A model generated the notes under the pieces. The model saw nothing but the letters and a program-made list of their open reading frames with translations. It was not told where the DNA came from and ran no database searches. 64,000 nucleotides of DNA, taken from NCBI GenBank assembly GCA_000182565.2, contig KQ257450.1. One strand, written 5' to 3'. The position numbers and the translations under genes were made by a program. The DNA is from Spizellomyces punctatus DAOM BR117. Its lineage: Eukaryota. Below are positions 14,901 through 26,455 of the stretch, in pieces; position 1 is the first letter of the stretch; each line of letters begins with the position of its first letter.

Positions 14901-16498
14901 AGTATATATCGGCTGATACAAATAAGCTACGACTCGACTGGGAGGCCACGTTGATGCGAGCCATAAACGGACGACCTGGAGCAAACTATGTTCTCCTGCG
15001 ATCCTTGCACTTGGTAGCGCTGGGCATTTTTGTTTTTGTCCGCGCAGATTCGGTGAACATGATTCGGCATGTAGAAAGCTCTACCAAAAAGACCGGTCTG
15101 GGAGGCATGGCCGCCAATAAAGGTGGCATCGGTATCAGTTTTAGCATCAATGACACCAGCGTCGCTCTGGTTACTGCCCATTTGGCGGCTGGTCAGAGTA
15201 ATGTGGATGAACGAAATCGAGATTACTGGACAATCCATGATGGACTGAATTTCCGTGGAAGGAGATTAGCAGAACATGATATGACGTTCTGGTTCGGTGA
15301 CTTCAACTACCGGATCAGTGCTCCAAACGAAGAAGTTCGCAGACGGGTCGGCCACAAAGAGCTCGACTACTTGTACCTCAATGACCAACTCAATGAGCAA
15401 CGAGCCTCTGGTGGCGCATTTGAAGGATACCAGGAGGGTGCTATAACCTTTGATCCGACCTACAAGTATGATAACGGTACGACCATCTATGACACGAGCG
15501 AAAAGGCTCGTGCACCGGCATGGACGGACCGGATACTTTTCAAAGGTCGCCATATACTATTGCGAGAGTATGCCAGGGGAGAAAGTCTCATATCCGATCA
15601 CAGACCCGTTCGAGCGGTGTTTGAACTAGACAGTGTCATTATTGACCGAGATCGAAAGGATGTACTTCAAAAGGAGATATACAAGGAGAAAATGGCCAGC
15701 AAAGATCTCCCACCACCTTTGCCCGTCCGGCCACAAGGTCCACCGCCAAAGATCCAGCGGCCTCCATCCACAGGACTCCTTATTGACCTCGCGGAGGATA
15801 CAAATCCACAACCGCAACAAACATCCATCTTTCCAAGCGAGACAACACGTAAGCCTTTCAGGTGATTAACGTTAATGGCACGCTGCATGCTAACATAATA
15901 GTTCCGTAAAGCCGCATCCACAAGCATCGGTGCTGCTCTCGGTTTCCGCGACTCTTTCCCACCAGCACGACCCGATTCCTTCCCACCAACCAAAAGCCTC
16001 GATTCCTCATTACCTCCTCCATCATCTGATACTTACAAATGGTGGGAACGGCAAATTGATGATGCATGGATACCTAGGGAAGGCGATGGCAAGGTTCGTG
16101 TTGGTATATCGCTCATGACCCGTGAGAGCATTAGATTAATCGGCTGCTCAATGCAGAACCCATTTTACACATTCCCATCCCAGTCTACGTCATCCATTAA
16201 CTCTCAGCAACCTCTGGCCCCCCAACTGCCTCCGGCTGGCCGCTCCTTCACCGTCCCTTCAAACACCTTCAACCGACCCCCACAGACAGCGTCTGCAACT
16301 CCACGATCATATACTGTGTCTTCATCCGTGTCGGCAAGTAAACATAACCCTTTCTTGGATCCACCCAGGAATACCAACCCTTCGATGGATGTGGCGACTG
16401 GCGGATTCCCCGACTCCACAGAAAATAGTTCACGGCAGGGAACGGGGCGTGGGAAGTTGAATCCTGAGCTCATACAGTTGTTTGGACAAGGTGCATAG
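11942..16498 (+). CDS. Synaptojanin-like polyphosphoinositide phosphatase (Sac1 + 5-phosphatase; INP52/INP53 family), many introns
   Basis: Sac1 motifs ISRLSCKRAGTR...RGVNDDGHVSNFVE, RGSVPVFWEQ, RTNCLDCLDRTN (CX5R intact). 5-phosphatase motifs GTWNVNG, NKGG, AHLAAG, FWFGDFNYRI, PTYKYD, PAWTDRIL, SDHRPV. Pro-rich tail with NPF motifs. Confidence 0.93.
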
Positions 16499-16613: not shown

Positions 16614-19376
16614 TCACTGTTCCATTCCAATAATTACATTGGCCACCATATTCATAGGCCAGTACACATAGCAGATGAACGGCAACAACCAAGCGCCATA
16701 CAATGTCCACCCATCTACAACTTTGCCAGCAACACCTTGCGCAACGTCCAATCCCTCCCATAGTGACATAATACCTAGCAAACCAAGCGGGGAAGCCAAG
16801 GTAACAGCGGCCACGTTCAACAGAAATCGGTAATGACTTTCAGTTGGTCTCGCGAGGAGAAATGCTGGTACGCTGGGAATGGCGAGAAATACCGAGAGAC
16901 TTGGATTTAACGTTGATAATGCAATTAATGCGGCGCCCAGTTCCGCACACCCCAAGCACTTCAAGATCAGCCAAGCGGGTGCGGTGGTTCTCGTGCTTGC
17001 ACCTGAACCCTCCATCATTCGCTGCAGTGTTGGGATCATAAAGCTGTAGATTGTCGCTGTAACGACTACAACGGCTGCTGCCATATTAAATGGCTACAAA
17101 AAATGATGACTGAATGAGAATTTGCAATAACCTATTTCAGGCAAAACATCCATACGTACATTGACCTCCCCAATAAGCGCCATAAACCGCACAGTAGGTG
17201 CTAGGTAAAACGCAATCGCTCCCGCCGCATGACACAGGACTAGAGTCACAACCGGTAAAAACAAAGGGCGGATACGGATATTAAATGCCGATATATCGGC
17301 CGGATGATTCGCAACTTCTGTTCCTTCGATCAAGTTTGGTCGCGCCGGTGGACTTTGATGGAGGTCGCCAGACGCCCACCACATCACCAATGACTGTCCA
17401 TGAGATTACCATCAATTGCTGCGCATTCACGAATCGTCACTTTGTCTTCATACCTCAATAACCAACGTCACAGAGAGTAGAATTACAGGCGGTATGTAGA
17501 CCGATAATGGAATGAAAGACTGTGCAGTGGGCATGATATAGAACCAATACGCATGATGGAGTCTTTCAAGCAAGTTATTCAAGCTTCTCAAAGCTGATTC
17601 AATTGCTCTAAACAAGAATGAATAAGTACATGCAAATAAAAAGTAGATATCTCAGCCTTACCGTCCAATCTGATGCCCAGTGATCGGGTATTGGGTCCCT
17701 TTCACATCATGAAGACCCCTTACTGTCATGGCTTCAATGTGGTATCTAGTACTACATTAGGATCATACGCGGACTCTTGCAATATCCAGATGCAATACCT
17801 CGCATATAACGCATGGCTTGCAGTAGGAACACCAAGAGCCTGGCTCTTCATGTATTCAAGAATGATGTCCGCCTTATGGAAGTAGCTGGACCAGTTATCG
17901 TCAAACTTATTCGGTGAGACAACATTGTGAATTCCAACAGGGAGTCCCTCATATTGCGCGCATCGGACGACGGTGGTGACCAGATCGGCATTTGGCAGTA
18001 GGCCATTCAAACCATCTGAGATAAAAAGATAATTTTAATACCTATGGACGACTTTGATCGGCAAAACATTCCTAGAGTTTTTACCTACAAGGATTCCCAC
18101 CGCTGAATATGCTCCGTTACCATCAAATTCCAAATTAATAGCTTCATGAATGACACCCCCGTGTCTGTCAAGCGGATCGTATTGCAACCCTGAAACAATC
18201 GTCCTTTAGCCGATCAACCGATGGAAATCATCTACCAAGTTAGAGGAGCTTACATGATGAAAGGTCGCTCTGGACGCCATGGTAGGCTTCGAGCCATGCT
18301 TGAGTTCCAATCGGACTGGGGTGTGTGACCAAAAATATAAAGTCCTTGGCCCAATGCGAAAATCCTAGGGGTTTGCGTTAGGTAAAGTTATTTGCGTATA
18401 CAAGAACGGGATGTCTGATGCTTACTTGTCACGAATTTTGCAAACGCCAATACATAGCTAACCCCCTCGGCATTTACTAAAAGACGATTGGTAAAATCCA
18501 TACGAGCATTACGAATATGCATGGAGAGAAAGTGCTTACCGGCGCCATTTTCCAATAGCCACGGTGCCGATATGACAATCGCCTCTGTCCCATCGCCTCG
18601 GGGAGCGCGGAAAACCGCGTAAGAATTTGCTCCGGAAACTATTTCATCATGGCGCGCATGCAGAAAGTTCTGAGTTGACGCATCCAATCCAAAGCTGCGA
18701 AATTCCTGCTCAAGAAATTCTGCGTGCCTAGTTGAAAGATCTTTATATAAGCTCAACAGTTTCCATATGCGAATGAGATGCACAAAGTTCTAAGATCACG
18801 TTGACCAGAACAAAGCACCGCATTATCTCTTTCCGAAAAGGAGAGTCATTAATAGCAAGATCTCATACATACCCGGACACATTCTTGGAGGGATCCCCCA
18901 TTGTTCGTATCTGATCTCGATAGCTAGTGGCCACCCATAAGTCAAGATCGCCAAAATACTTTGAAGTCTGCCAACACACATCACTTGATTACTGCCGACG
19001 CTATGCAATGGACAGCACGCTCATAGAATAGCGCACTCACCTGCCCTGGTAGCAACGCATTTTCGTCGACCTTCGCGACGTGATGGAATTCGTCTCGGGG
19101 CAAGAGAAGCAACCACAAGAGTCCAACAACGTAAAATATCCAACTATTCATTGCAACCCATTAGTACTATTCCTGTTATCCCTGACAGACGGAAACAATC
19201 ATCCATAGTTCTTTAGGAGCCCACACTTGAACATGCAGTAAGACCCACCTCGAAGAAGAAATGACTTTCTGCAGGTAATACCCGACAACTCTGCGAAAAT
19301 GAATCCTCCTCAGCTCCTTTGCGAGCTTGGGCGGCGAAGGAGCCGCTGCCGTCGCGGACCGCTTGAAACGCAGCAT
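16614..19376 (-). CDS. GAA1: GPI transamidase component Gaa1 (spliced)
   Basis: [57 protein letters not shown]-terminal multi-TM region (LNPSLS...ICYVYWP). Confidence 0.9.
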
Positions 19377-19637
19377 TTCAGTTCCTTTAGCAGGTCCACC
19401 TCTAGCCTGGCTGGAAAGTTGACTCCATGTTGAGTGAGTCATGCTTATGTAAGCAGTCGGAGCAGAGGAGAAACAGCACTTGGTTTGCCCCTAAGCGATA
19501 CCATGGAATTGAGGGTATAGGCGACCCTTTTGAAAAATGCTATGTAGCCCGCTCTTCACCGTTTAATAGTGTACAGCAGACTCTTTTTCGAATAGTACGC
19601 AGCTCGGGACTACGTTTCCGATAGTGACTATTGGAAG

Positions 19638-21791
19638 ATGTCGTCCAGGAACGAACTCACCCCGAGCATAAGCTTATCGCCTGATTCGGCCATGAATCTT
19701 CCTGGACGATTTTCACGAAGCAAGCGGCCGAGCAAGTCAAAGAAAGAAGATCTACCTCCAAAGGAAACTCACCAGAAGATCGAAAGGCTCACGAAACGGA
19801 GTTTGTACGAACGGCTAACCTATGCTCTGGACATTCTTGTGCCGGAAGATGAGCCGGAGACTATGGTGGTCCCTGCTGGACATTTTTTGCAACAGGTCCA
19901 CTATGGAAAGATACATCGGTGGAGGGTGGCCCAGAATGAATTTGCGAATTTGCCGGAATATCTCATTGACCATCGAGAGAAAGAGCCCCACTACAATGTC
20001 TTTGTAAAGAGCGAAGGATGGTTCCCAATCTTTGACCTAACGTCAGCCTTTTTGAAGAGATGGGATATGCTATCCTTAATCTTGCTTATCTTCACAGCAT
20101 CGGTTACACCCTTCGAGACTGCGTAAGTAGGACGGGACATTGGATCTCTTGATTATGAGACAGGCTGGCTGTTTATCTTGCTTTCGCTACAAATCAAAAC
20201 TTATCAGCCCGCTTTTTGCAATAGATTCATCGCGAGCGACAACTCTATCAATATCATGTTCTTGATCAACCGCGTGGTTGACCTCGTCTTCTTCGTTGAT
20301 ATGTTCGTCCAAATTCGAACTCCCTATCGCGATCCTCAAACCGGGAGACTCGTCCGAGATGGCAAATCAATTCTGCTTCGGTACCTGAAATCGTGGTTTC
20401 TTATTGACTTGGTATCTGTAATACCTTTCGAGCTTGTGAACATGGGTCAAGGAGGGGGAAAGAAGAACTTGAATCAACTGAGACTTTTACGGTTTTTACG
20501 ACTTGCGCGTCTGTTGAAACTGCTTCGAGTCCTTCGAGCTAGCCGCAAGTTGAAACAATGGCAAGTGCATATAAACTTGCGTTACGCGACATTGAAGGTC
20601 CTCCAGGTAAGTCAAATAGAGTGTTTCGGAAATTTCAACAAGTTGACTGATTGAACGCATGTAGTATTGCATCATCATCATGTTCGTCATTCACTGGCTT
20701 GCATGCGGATACCGGTTGGCGGACGAGCAAAACGCTCCAACGGATCCTCCAGGATGGCTAGCAAACTACGCGACTTACGCCAACGTATCTCTTTCCTCTA
20801 TCTCACCCTGGGAAGCTTACGTCTTGGCAGTCTATTGGAGTTCGTCTACGTTCAGCTTGGTTGGGCCCCAATGGGAAGTCATCGCACCAACGACAGTTAG
20901 AGAAACCGGCTATGCGTTCTTTGCTACGTTTGTATCTTATATAACTGCGCTGTATTTGATTGGCTCCCTGGTCAACATATTGGGTATCGCCAATCGAGTG
21001 CAGAGGGAACATGATCTACGAGTCGATAACTATCTCGAGATGTTCGACCGTCTCAAGTTAGACCAGCGACTGAAGATCAAGGTGCACGAATATCTCTCGG
21101 ATCATTTTGCTGCTGCAACCACTCAGGCGTACACAAATCTTCTGAAAGACCTTCCTACCCAATTACATGGGTTTATTACAATGGAGATCTTTGTTGATTT
21201 TATTGGTCAAATACCCTACCTCGAACCATTTATCGATCGAGAGCCGTCCATGACGCAGGAACTCTGTCGCGGAATTGAGATTCGGACCATCCCAGCGAAT
21301 GCGCACATTTTCACTGAAGGGTATGAGGGAATCTACTACTTGGAACATGGAATTGTGGCAATCGAAGGAAGGGTGTATCCCAGGTAAAAAAAGAAAGTTT
21401 CTTATCGCGACATGCTCTCTCTCTCTCATTCCTCCTCTCACTGATATATTTCTGCAGCGGAAGCGTCTTTGGGCGAACTTCTCTACGTGAAAATATCAAG
21501 CAAAGCGAGTGCAGGGCATTAACCAACGTGACAATCCACGTCTTGCCCCTAACGATCTTGAAGAGCACTTTGGAAAGGAACCCAAAGATTCGATACTACG
21601 CCAAGCGATGGATAGCATGGCAGCTATTGAGGCGATACATATTCACGTATACGACTTTATACTACACTGCCGCGAAGAGGGGTGCAAGAATGATCCCGCC
21701 GCTCATGTCGATGAGGCCGAACTTGAAGGAAGGCGAATTCGACGATATTGACCTCGCGGTTCTTGAGCATATCAATGAATTCAATTATTAG
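19638..21791 (+). CDS. Voltage-gated 6TM channel of the CNBD superfamily (KCNH/HCN-like) with non-canonical pore (spliced)
   Basis: S1 WDMLSLILLIFTASVTPFETAF, S2-S3 VDLVFFVD...YLKSWFLIDLVSVIPFE, S4 LRLLRFLRLARLLKLLRVLRASR, S5 HWLAC, pore helix YVLAVYWS, C-linker LLKDLPTQL, truncated CNBD. Confidence 0.88.
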
Positions 21792-23014
21792 TTGTATCTT
21801 AATGATGGACCGATCGTTCATAATTGAACATGTGGCATTAGTGTAAAACATGGCCCTTCTAGAGGGAAAAAGCTTCAATGAATTGTGCTTTTATAAACAT
21901 GCTCGTTTGTAAGCAACATTTAGATGGAGATGAGGAGTCCTTTCACGATTGGCATCCGAAGCAAAGACTACAAAATCTAAAACGGTGACCCGCTAGTAGT
22001 GTGAAGCTTGGCCTTTTTTGAACGAGATAAACAGTAATATTAAAGGTGCGATATGTTGTTAGTCAAACAATAGGACAACGGGCGCACTGCTAATGAACAA
22101 TGGCAGCTGTATTGATGAATAATGGGCACTTAAGCACAGGTTGAGTTAAACTACTGTCAACAAAGAAAAGGAACCCGCATGTTTCTTGGAAATGGGGCTC
22201 ATGAACCTGGAGATTTCCAAAGTTGGTGGACTCTCCGATAGTCGAGATGGATGACGTGAGCTCACGGTATCGCACGATCTTGATCATGGCTTACGAAAAT
22301 CACCCTGCCGGTCTTCCCCACAGTTCATGGCATTGCACTTGGCATTCCAGTTTATACAAGAGCAAATATGATAAACGGCAGCTGTTTATGCGGCGATGTT
22401 CAATATGAATACACTGGGGAACTGGGAAGCATGACCGTTTGTCACTGCGGGTCTTGTCGCAAAGGTATAGGGCTGTAGTTTTTGGATTCGCATCTGCATT
22501 AGCCTCATATCAATAATTTTAGCGCAAGGACATAGTTGCGTTGCTGTAGTAGTAGATGCTACGCTTTTTAAATGGACGCATGGGCAGAAATGCATTAGAG
22601 AGTTTGAGTCTACGATCGGGAAGAAAAGAGCGTTCTGTGAACGCTGCGGAACTCCTTTGTATTCGCGTAGAGATGATCTTCCGACTGTCTTGAGGTATGT
22701 AATTCGTGGTTCTATAGTCGCATTTGTGGGTAGCTGACTCAATACTCGCAGACTACGGATGGGAACAGTGGATACACCCACTGACGCAACACCCGTTGCG
22801 CACATTTATGCCACAGACGTGCCAGCTTGGGCAGCACTGGACGATGACATTCCGCGGTACTCGGAACTAGAGCCAAGCCGAATGTAGTTGTCGCAAGGGA
22901 GTTAACTTCTGGCTTGCACATCAAGTGCAGTCTATTGCGATGCACTCTAATTCGCACTGCTATTTACATGCATTACAGACTAAGATATAACTAGAAACAT
23001 CGCCAACATACAAT

Positions 23015-25516: not shown

Positions 25517-26455
25517 CTACTGGCGCTTTCCAGTCTTGGCAAGCCAGTCAGACCTTGAAAAACAGAGGACTGTTGAGAACACGTTCCAAGCACGTCAATA
25601 GCAAGAAAACGAAAACTCACCATTCCTGGTAGGGACTCTTGGAGAACTTCGTCTCGGCCCAGAGATCGGGGGTGAGGAAACCGTAAGTGTTACCGATCGC
25701 CATGAAGGTAGCCTTCACGAAGTTACCGAGAGTCTTGGTGGAACCCCTGGCGGTGGTGTAACAGTCCTGGATACCAGCGAGCTGAAGAAGCTTCTTGGGC
25801 ACAGGAGCGGCAACAAGGCCGGTACCACGGGGGGCAGGAACAAGACGAGCAGTCACGGAACCGCACTTGCCGGTCACCTTGGCGGGGACGGTGTGAGGTT
25901 CACCGAGAATGGTACCCCAGTAACCACGGCGAACAGGAATGACGCTCAACTTGGCGAGGATGATGGCTCCACGGATGGCGGTGGCAACCTCCTTGGAACA
26001 CTTGACACCCAAACCGACGTGTCCATTGAAGTCTCCAATGACAACGAAAGCCTTGAAACGAGTACGCTGACCGGCACGAGTTTGCTTCTGCACCGGCATG
26101 ATCTTCATGACCTCATCCTTGAGCTTGGGGAGGAAGAAGTCTACGATCTGGTACTCCTTGATGGGCAAAGAGAAAAGGTAAATCTCCTCAATCGACTTGA
26201 TCTTGCCGTCCTTGACGAGACGTCCGAGTTTGGTGACGGGGACCCACTCCTTGGCCTGGTCGTCCTTGCGGCCTGCAGTCACCACGTCAACATTCAATGC
26301 CTGTAGGCCAGCGAAGAGTTGTCAAAAGACTTACCACCCCGTCTTCCCCTGCCACGGTCACCACGACGGCCACGCCTGTCGCCGCCACGTCCACCACGGT
26401 CACCGCGACCAAATCCACCACGTCCGCGACCTTCGGCCGATACTGCGTCAGCCAT
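25517..26455 (-). CDS. RPS2: 40S ribosomal protein S2 (uS5) (spliced)
   Basis: RG-rich N-terminus [59 protein letters not shown]. Strong codon bias. Confidence 0.98.

Follow-up and report, generated by a model that had tools for sequence, protein, structure and literature searches.

Introduction

Selectivity for K+ is ascribed to four contiguous ion-binding sites built by a T-x-G-Y-G filter, and channels with fewer sites are non-selective: NaK, a non-selective channel with sites S3 and S4 only, becomes K+-selective once its TVGDGN is changed to TVGYGD, and NaK2CNG, which mimics the filter of CNG channels, is likewise non-selective (PMC9822992, PMC3831281; all papers are cited here by PubMed Central number, each for the part of its text that was available). 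A survey of channels with a cyclic-nucleotide-binding domain (CNBD) found the TVG-Y/F-G filter to be highly conserved, with animal CNG and plant CNGC channels as the named exceptions; chytrid fungi are not among the organisms sampled in its available text (PMC7576140). In HCNL1, a zebrafish channel of the same superfamily, the filter string differs by species (WPFLE, WISTK) and protons pass through a methionine gap in the basic ladder of the fourth transmembrane segment (S4), a conductance that is abolished when the gap is filled (PMC7306766). Here we analyse a gene located at positions 19638-21791 of a 64,000-nucleotide stretch (hereafter, the window) of contig KQ257450.1 from the chytrid Spizellomyces punctatus DAOM BR117 (assembly GCA_000182565.2), which encodes a channel of the CNBD superfamily that combines a full-length voltage sensor with a pore lacking the outer half of the K+ filter.

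BeCNG1, a CNBD-type channel of zoosporic fungi which is K+-selective and cGMP-gated and has a GYGD filter and conserved cGMP-binding residues (PMC4046227), has been proposed to act in zoospore signalling (PMC4046227, PMC9616733), and the model put forward for Blastocladiella postulates a voltage-activated entry of cations following K+ efflux (PMC4046227). Prole and Taylor reported no CNG or HCN homologues in the pathogenic fungi covered by the available text of their study, which were not chytrids (PMC3410928). No description of the chytrid family analysed here was found in the full-text literature, subscription papers and supplements lying outside the search, and the available text of a chytrid developmental atlas holds no passage on ion channels (PMC8887899).

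The pattern of conservation outlined below tentatively points to a voltage-gated channel that passes cations without selecting for K+. A third, fungal filter exception with an intact eight-charge sensor would constitute a natural experiment, in which a K+-channel scaffold has been deprived of its outer filter and the filter threonine replaced by leucine, and would be a candidate for the voltage-dependent conductance of zoospore signalling. Its function is directly testable, because the gene is present in Batrachochytrium and Spizellomyces is transformable (PMC7213984).

Conservation of the pore loop

The pore loop, YWSSSTFSLVGPQWEVIAP (aa 346-364, positions 20833-20889 of the window), lies in the interior of exon 3 and reads S-L-V-G-P-Q-W-E, as opposed to T-(V/I)-G-Y-G-D in relatives. 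An earlier note on this DNA, made from the letters alone, had claimed that the loop contains no T(S/T)VG(Y/F)G(D/N) and that no intron could rescue it, and both statements hold. In the register obtained with hERG and with the sister clade described below, W347 and G356 are nine residues apart, the same as in GYG channels; S353-L354-V355-G356 correspond to T-T/S-V/I-G, P357-Q358 stand at Y-G, and Gly356 is separated from the conserved Pro364 by two more residues than in relatives.

A protein search with exon 3 yielded 27 orthologs out of 742 candidates, with 48-96% identity over this exon, and all those with an organism name (26 of 27) come from chytrids. The closest, P0001 from Spizellomyces sp. 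'palustris', has 639 aa and agrees with the spliced model at 609 of 639 positions (95%) with no indel. Across the 27 sequences L354 and G356 are invariant, S353 is conserved at 0.85 and V/I355 at 0.93; position 357 holds proline in 17 sequences, asparagine in four, alanine in three, threonine in two and valine in one, and positions 358-363 each admit five to nine residue types. Mean agreement with the consensus reaches 0.88 over S353-G356, 0.89 in S4 and 0.84 in S1, takes values of 0.73 in the C-linker, 0.74 in the beta roll, 0.73 in the C-terminal tail, 0.70 in S5, 0.64 in S6 and 0.63 in the pore helix, and amounts to 0.50 in the turret, 0.41 over residues 357-363 and 0.36 in the S3-S4 loop, the stretch behind the inner filter varying like a surface loop. 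The earlier note had singled out the conservation of VGPQW as a check: the inner part of the motif is conserved, but its outer part is variable. Nor did the search bring up close orthologs with a canonical filter, GYG being present in none of the 27. A ladder and a non-GYG pore shared by this many orthologs identify the pattern as homology and not chance, and the alignment supports reading the loss of GYG as a conserved, selected state, not as decay or error, with constraint judged from protein conservation alone.

Starting from the divergent family member P0029, a second search added sequences from Batrachochytrium salamandrivorans, Lobulomyces angularis and Homolaphlyctis. By taxonomy look-up, the family occurs within the class Chytridiomycetes in the Spizellomycetales, Lobulomycetales, Polychytriales, Cladochytriales, Rhizophlyctidales and Rhizophydiales and, with the Chytridiales represented among the orthologs, in at least seven orders. 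A profile of the 27 sequences matched 26,362 proteins at E <= 0.001 among 1.84 billion representatives, full-length clade members scoring 618-1116 bits and the best single-domain outsiders about 230-285 bits. In a tree of 180 channel domains (FastTree, LG+gamma, midpoint root), restricted to domains in which 380 or more of profile positions 110-550 are covered and to six clade fragments with coverage above 200, the 34 sequences of the family form a monophyletic group (support 1.0) whose stem measures 0.87 substitutions per site, and their sister group consists of 64 single-domain channels (parent support 0.937). The named relatives of P0055, a member of that sister group, are green algae (Mesostigma, Cymbomonas, Micromonas, Tetraselmis, Trebouxia) and Vitrella, with no chytrid among the matches listed (120 of 216, most without an organism name). 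Searched from P0029, clade matches have E-values of 3.2e-65 or better, and the best non-clade matches have 25-26% identity and E-values of 2.9e-41 or weaker. By these searches and alignments, the family is an orphan clade, old and under constraint, that has to date been met in the Chytridiomycetes and nowhere else. The role in flagellated spores that the earlier note had suggested fits this chytrid-only distribution.

The altered filter extends to almost the entire clade. G-Y/F-G is absent from 33 of its 34 sequences, and the signature T/S-[VIL]-G-[YF]-G occurs in none of the 34 versus 55 of the 64 sister-clade channels. The sole G-Y-G in the clade is found in P0041, a 244-aa fragment placed inside the clade in the tree, whose string S-L-I-G-Y-G-W-S-V-A-Q-P keeps the leucine and the two-residue-longer loop; its G-Y-G might be left over from the ancestral filter, or might have come back by chance at two positions that vary freely.

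Some features of the neighbouring branches deserve mention. Non-canonical pore strings, such as M-G-Y-G-D, P-M-G-V-G-D and V-L-G-Y-G-S, are present in nine proteins of the protist sister clade (P0079, P0091, P0099, P0109, P0128, P0129, P0156, P0172, P0174), so that the filter has been remodelled repeatedly in this region of the superfamily. Many of the top-scoring matches outside the clade (P0030-P0033, P0038, P0039, P0044 and others) carry two to six CNBD-channel repeats in tandem on one chain, most of these repeats with GYG, and are reminiscent of the four-repeat K+-selective cGMP-gated channels of sperm. Within the clade, P0027 from Nowakowskiella is annotated as 'RAC-alpha serine/threonine-protein kinase' and P0288 from Homolaphlyctis combines Pfam kinase domains with Ion_trans; these fusions are probably merged gene models.

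Voltage sensor and channel architecture

The eight basic residues at every third position of S4 are as the earlier note had described them in both string and location, and K270 comes after them (Table 1). In 27 of the 31 clade sequences with S4 covered, all eight ladder positions are basic; the remaining four lack just the outermost one, and positions 2-8 are basic in all 31. Contrary to the emphasis of the note, the long ladder is not peculiar to this gene, since 56 of the 64 sequences of the nearest, GYG-bearing clade are also basic at eight of eight positions. Among the charge-transfer and other sensor residues of the clade, F184 and D187 are conserved in 31 of 31 sequences, D223 in 30 of 31, E160 in 29 of 30 sequences and D143 in all 30, with D181 being aspartate in 27 and asparagine in four; the sister clade has the same residues (F in 64 of 64, D187 in 63 of 64, D223 in 64 of 64). 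Exon 2 alone, which encodes S2-S4, finds its best match among solved structures in HCN1 (8e-15), with no gap in S4 or the QW motif that follows it, and the serine that interrupts the ladder of HCN1 is Arg257 here.

Sites that are conserved in both groups yet radically different between them number 13 in a scan of the alignment. Only three lie in the membrane part (T161, L271 and Leu354) and nine fall in the C-linker and CNBD, including Arg535 at the glutamate of F-G-E, with most of the others in the C-linker. By this comparison, the long ladder is inherited, unchanged, from K+-type ancestors.

The earlier note's assignment of the protein as HCN/KCNH-like is borne out by domain, profile and fold searches. 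Pfam Ion_trans is found in 27 of 27 orthologs (best E-value 1.1e-24) and cNMP_binding, weakly, in 15 of 27 at E <= 0.01 (17.8 bits in P0001, against a cut-off of 27.5); no other Pfam family matched the 27 orthologs, and exons 3 and 4 searched singly gave no match. Against the PDB, the family profile matches hERG (2.6e-42), HCN1 (9.1e-38), SKOR (1.2e-36), EAG1 (2.6e-36), KAT1 (3.1e-36), AKT1 (about 2e-35) and CNGA1 (2.1e-28), and the hERG and HCN1 alignments run from S1 through the end of the CNBD, to position 550 of 616, C-linker and beta roll included. In an AlphaFold2 model of P0001 built on the 27-sequence alignment (pLDDT 72.7, pTM 0.54), S1-S6 are followed by a helical C-linker and a beta roll, and a long C helix comes after the roll, with a pore helix at 337-352, an extended segment at 353-359, helices over 400-491 and strands over 494-559 before the C helices. 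Foldseek places this model closest to EAG1 (3.2e-21), followed by GORK, HCN1, AKT1, hERG, SKOR, CNGA1 and KAT1, all near 1e-20, within one order of magnitude and at 18-22% identity; the predicted S4 helix ends at 278 and S5 begins at 282, and all top fold matches are non-domain-swapped channels. The protein is thus a member of the CNBD-channel superfamily (HCN/KCNH/CNG/plant Shaker) that belongs to none of its named families.

Its nucleotide-binding domain carries an altered phosphate-binding cassette, F533-G-R535-T-S-L-R-E-N-I-K543-Q-S-E-C-R548-A-L-T. Position 535 is arginine at a frequency of 0.88 in the clade and glutamate at 0.64 in the sister clade, turning FGE into FGR. Five residues before the second arginine, clade members have lysine followed by a variable residue and several outgroups have arginine followed by threonine, asparagine or leucine. 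The FGE glutamate and the phosphate-binding arginine position are what we take to be the canonical nucleotide contacts, and, going by these residues, we read the domain as a CNBD-homology domain that would not bind cAMP or cGMP in the canonical manner.

Outgroup matches span only profile positions ~82-590 of 616, so that the N-terminal domain and the tail are clade-specific. The N-terminal domain has no recognised fold in the searches made, which does not imply that its fold is novel: its AlphaFold2 model, from 21 aligned sequences, is poor (pLDDT 65.4, pTM 0.41), a structure search through 48,161 PDB representatives returned a single match (Z 2.1), and a feature search of the ESM Atlas gave low recognition (1761) with bacterial clusters only. 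No Pfam match to the PAS family was obtained in exon 1 (E up to 1) or in the 27 orthologs (E up to 0.01), the N-terminal domain model being poor. Beyond the beta roll, the long C helix (aa 569-602, 21576-21677), beginning PKIRYYAKRWIAWQLLRRYIFTY, is basic and aromatic in character and strongly conserved, and presumably resembles the amphipathic calmodulin-binding helices of other CNBD channels. The clade-specific tail that follows (aa 603-639, 21678-21788) bears an invariant-looking PPL..RP..EGE.DDID.AV.EH motif and, in nearly all orthologs, an E-x-G-F/Y end, and may contain a docking or targeting motif.

Proposed mechanism and alternatives

We put forward, with a probability of roughly 0.45, that the protein forms a voltage-gated homotetramer with a truncated filter of the NaK/CNG type, conducting cations without selectivity for K+. 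Four subunits would enclose a central pore in which no more than the inner part of the filter is left, made of the backbone carbonyls of Leu354 and Val355 held in place by Gly356, and comparable to the filter of NaK, with its two sites, or to the short one of CNG channels. A pore built in this way would not select K+ over Na+, might let Ca2+ through, and would generate a depolarising cation current gated by membrane voltage and not by canonical binding of cAMP or cGMP. We favour a voltage-gated pore that is not K+-selective because the inner filter is conserved, the outer loop is free to vary and the sensor is unchanged. By analogy with HCNL1, which did not retain it (PMC7306766), a plugged and functionless filter would not be expected to keep a glycine that shapes the backbone.

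The prediction of assembly is compatible with a tetramer. Four copies of aa 279-401 of P0001 received a predicted assembly score of 0.63, compared to 0.00 for the best of three controls, passing a mark that 21 of 30 solved pairs and none of 23 single chains reach; in contrast to the calibration, the prediction was made with four copies, and it did not draw on the ortholog alignment. Runs agree in at least 95% of contacts with a partner pLDDT of at least 74, and the predicted interface comprises 349-360 and 385-393, with residues 354, 388, 389 and 392 contacting their own counterparts in the neighbouring copy. The pass may reflect likeness to the often-solved K+-channel tetramers, perhaps as memory, and it is silent on whether the pore is open or closed.

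Several observations weigh against a conducting pore of this type. The outer mouth has no conserved acidic residue: position 357 is acidic in none of the 27 orthologs, thus lacking the glutamate that follows the filter glycine in CNG channels, and position 360 is acidic in 13 of 27. With Leu354 in place of the threonine, the hydroxyl ring of filter site S4 is lost and the filter's inner mouth is lined by four hydrophobic side chains, which could seal the pore, and we know of no characterised conducting channel with leucine at the filter threonine position. Three long-branch clade members lack the filter glycine altogether (P0029, ISFMES; P0036, LALTSPG; P0069, ITLSSTS), and P0029 retains the full S4 ladder, so that some lineages can dispense with the filter and not with the sensor. 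The invariant leucine, the missing acidic ring and these three members leave room for a sealed pore.

A broader possibility, which we regard as doubtful but worth stating, is that a channel type peculiar to chytrids has evolved, its full sensor of HCN length driving something else than a pore of the K+ type, either with a novel sort of short filter or with the pore sealed. In the first case, the filter would be a ring of four leucines plus one glycine with its own selectivity, for instance admitting the Na+ or Ca2+ that sets zoospore swimming, and the channel would be a fungal stand-in for the HCN/CatSper step of sperm; with a sealed pore, it would be a pure voltage sensor, or conduct through its sensor by a route unlike the arginine gap of HCNL1. 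Either version would be a mechanism so far undescribed in the CNBD superfamily.

A protein that senses voltage without conducting, and relays the signal to other proteins by way of its C-linker, CNBD-like domain and conserved tail, is an unlikely alternative. In its favour stand the strong conservation of S4, S1, C-linker, beta roll and tail, the clade-specific N-terminal domain and tail, the concentration of radical changes in the C-linker and CNBD (9 of 13), and the tolerated loss of the filter glycine in 3 of 34 members. A mere scaffold, however, would have no need of a conserved pore helix, SLVG, Pro364, Glu369 and S6, and Pfam shows no partner or enzymatic domain besides Ion_trans and cNMP_binding, although this is an argument from absence.

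Conduction through the sensor, with a sealed pore and ions, perhaps protons, crossing each voltage-sensing domain as in zebrafish HCNL1 or omega-current mutants, was among the functions proposed by the earlier note, and we consider it rather unlikely. The replacement of GYG by partly hydrophobic or variable residues, the invariant leucine at the inner mouth and the retention of the sensor in members that lack the filter glycine speak for this hypothesis, and HCNL1 is an instance of such a conversion within the superfamily (PMC7306766). The HCNL1 path, however, depends on the methionine that interrupts its arginine ladder, and the ladder examined here is basic at positions 2-8 in every sequence, with arginine even at the serine position of HCN1. 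F184, D187 and D223 are those of the K+-type sister clade, so that the gating pore shows no sign of remodelling, and the inner filter is conserved, unlike that of HCNL1. The data hence do not bear out a proton channel of the HCNL1 type.

The regulatory subunit also contemplated in the earlier note, a silent or modulatory chain associating with a GYG-bearing partner in the manner of Kv5/6/8/9, AtKC1 or CNGB, is not favoured either, and we deem it improbable. Some modulatory subunits typically have non-canonical filters, which speaks for it, but the silent subunits known so far are closely related paralogues of the chains they pair with, which speaks against it. Here, a fully supported stem of 0.87 substitutions per site leads to the clade, identity to the nearest GYG relatives is only ~25-26% and, among the matches listed, those relatives with names are green algae and Vitrella, not chytrids; the pore domain, moreover, is predicted to self-assemble, possibly through memory. 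Chytrids do possess at least one other CNBD-type channel, BeCNG1 being reported for S. punctatus, but the family is also present in Batrachochytrium, from which the available text of the same paper reports BeCNG1 to be absent (PMC9616733).

K+ selectivity achieved through a non-canonical filter appears very improbable. Both the pore helix and the V-G of the K+ signature are retained, and the P0041 fragment reads S-L-I-G-Y-G, but filters with fewer than four sites are non-selective (PMC9822992, PMC3831281), 33 of 34 clade members lack G-Y/F-G and the residues replacing it vary freely. A pseudogene, annotation artefact or sequencing error masking VGYG can practically be dismissed, being rejected by ortholog alignment and read mapping: the frame is open over 639 codons, a spliced contig matches the window exactly, independent raw DNA reads show no differences or indels, and 27 orthologs share the non-GYG pore.

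Comparison with described channels

The chytrid channel resembles HCN1 in its six transmembrane segments followed by C-linker and CNBD, in its profile match and in an S4 of HCN length that aligns without gaps through the QW motif. It differs from HCN channels in reading S-L-V-G-P in place of their C-I-G-Y-G (motif quoted in PMC7306766), in having arginine at the serine of the HCN ladder and at the glutamate of FGE, lysine at the phosphate-binding arginine, and an unrelated N-terminal domain and C-terminal tail, at a Foldseek identity of ~19-20%.

Among KCNH channels, hERG is the best full-length profile match and EAG1 the top Foldseek match, and the C-R-A-L-T stretch of the cassette aligns with V-R-A-L-T of hERG. 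The cyclic-nucleotide-binding-homology domain of KCNH channels binds no nucleotide. The chytrid protein nevertheless lacks G-F-G, with S-L-V-G-P against T-S-V-G-F-G in hERG, shows no PAS/eag domain by Pfam in exon 1 or the 27 orthologs, and has an S4 longer than the part that aligns with hERG.

As regards the filter, NaK and animal CNG channels offer the parallel on which the proposed model of the pore is built, in that the T/x-V/I-G start is kept and the Y-G half lost, and the protein has a CNGA1 homologue among its profile matches (2.1e-28). The animal CNG filter, T-I-G-E, keeps the threonine and has glutamate after the glycine. In NaK, too, the threonine is kept and aspartate follows the glycine (TVGDG; PMC9822992, PMC3831281), whereas the chytrid channels have leucine and no acidic residue at position 357.

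With HCNL1, the family shares its membership in the CNBD superfamily, the loss of GYG, a lineage with a flagellated cell type and, probably, the lack of gating by cyclic nucleotides; the filter of HCNL1, however, drifts between species and its S4 has a methionine gap (PMC7306766), whereas the chytrid inner filter is conserved and the ladder gapless. BeCNG1 is similar as a CNBD-type channel of zoosporic fungi proposed for zoospore signalling (PMC4046227, PMC9616733), but it combines GYGD with conserved cGMP-binding residues (PMC4046227), and its reported distribution excludes Batrachochytrium (PMC9616733), where the non-GYG family occurs.

Gene structure and sequence accuracy

The channel gene comprises four exons on the + strand, with a coding sequence of 1920 nt that specifies 639 aa and a stop codon (Table 1). 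Within the 64-kb window, tblastn detects this locus only.

Table 1. Coordinates, in the window, of the channel gene and of the protein segments it encodes
Feature	Position	Strand	Remarks
Transcribed unit (5' untranslated region, four exons, 3' untranslated region)	19520..21912	+	Span of one spliced contig, run X1
Exon 1, coding (aa 1-162, last codon split)	19638..20122	+	Disordered N-terminus, family-specific N-terminal domain, most of S1
Family-specific N-terminal cytoplasmic domain (aa 42-130)	19761..20027	+	Conserved among orthologs, outside outgroup profile matches
Intron 1 (102 nt, GT..AG)	20123..20224	+	Splice signals and spliced contig
Exon 2, coding (to aa 289)	20225..20606	+	S2, S3, S4, start of S5; Pfam Ion_trans 1.8e-14
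S4 charge ladder (aa 247-270), LRLLRFLRLARLLKLLRVLRASRK	20478..20549	+	R248, R251, R254, R257, K260, R263, R266, R269, then K270
Intron 2 (58 nt, GT..AG)	20607..20664	+	Splice signals and spliced contig
Exon 3, coding (aa 290-529, last codon split)	20665..21383	+	S5, pore helix, filter, S6, C-linker, first half of CNBD-like beta roll
Pore helix (aa 337-352)	20806..20853	+	Y341 and W347 invariant among orthologs
Putative remnant inner filter, S353-L354-V355-G356	20854..20865	+	L354 at the Thr position of T-V-G-Y-G
Putative remodelled outer filter and loop, P357-Q-W-E-V-I-A-P364	20866..20889	+	In place of Y-G-D; variable among orthologs
S6 (aa 367-398)	20896..20991	+	I388, G389, V392 touch their counterparts in the predicted tetramer
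C-linker (aa 400-491)	20995..21270	+	Helical; aligned with hERG and HCN1 C-linkers
Intron 3 (74 nt, GT..AG)	21384..21457	+	Splice signals and spliced contig
Exon 4, coding (aa 529-639; stop 21789-21791)	21458..21791	+	Rest of CNBD-like domain, long C helix, acidic conserved C-terminal tail
Altered phosphate-binding cassette, F533-G-R535 ... K543 ... R548-A-L-T551	21468..21524	+	

Public sequencing reads were mapped to positions 19400-22000. Run X1 provides a single contig of 2159 nt over 19520-21912 with no differing letters, no gaps and exactly the three predicted introns absent; the type of this run, DNA, is only a guess, but a contig devoid of three GT..AG introns is cDNA-like. Contigs from run X2 retain the introns and are genomic. 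X1 is possibly the source of the assembly and therefore not independent as regards base accuracy, whereas X19 is: its raw ChIP DNA reads, from a different study (3078 mapped, with depth in 30 of 30 bins), show zero other letters and zero indels, and hence no trace of an error hiding VGYG or VGFG, the check that the earlier note had called for. Because both the spliced contig and the independent DNA reads are identical to the window, the pore codons are not a sequencing error and the gene, in line with that note, is not a pseudogene. Raw RNA reads from run X18 (305 mapped, from ~6% of the run) concentrate on the 3' end, at 21488-21922, and include a loose poly(A) end, AAAAAAAAAAA, behind 21848. 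The channel gene is intact, spliced as modelled and transcribed.

The depth of the X19 ChIP DNA reads is uneven, being 5-10 times greater over the gene's 3' end and downstream of it (up to ~70 per strand) than over 20100-20700 (~3-7); the stretches that stand out are 21140-22000 and 19400-19570. The neighbouring genes are unrelated housekeeping genes with no bearing on the channel. Upstream lie a phosphatase-like open reading frame with Exo_endo_phos2 (14903-15862, + strand, 4.5e-72) and two exons of a Gaa1 GPI-transamidase gene (16617-18789, - strand, 2.3e-14 and 2.3e-09), and downstream the gene for ribosomal protein uS5 (25620-26321, - strand, 1.7e-29 and 2.3e-24).

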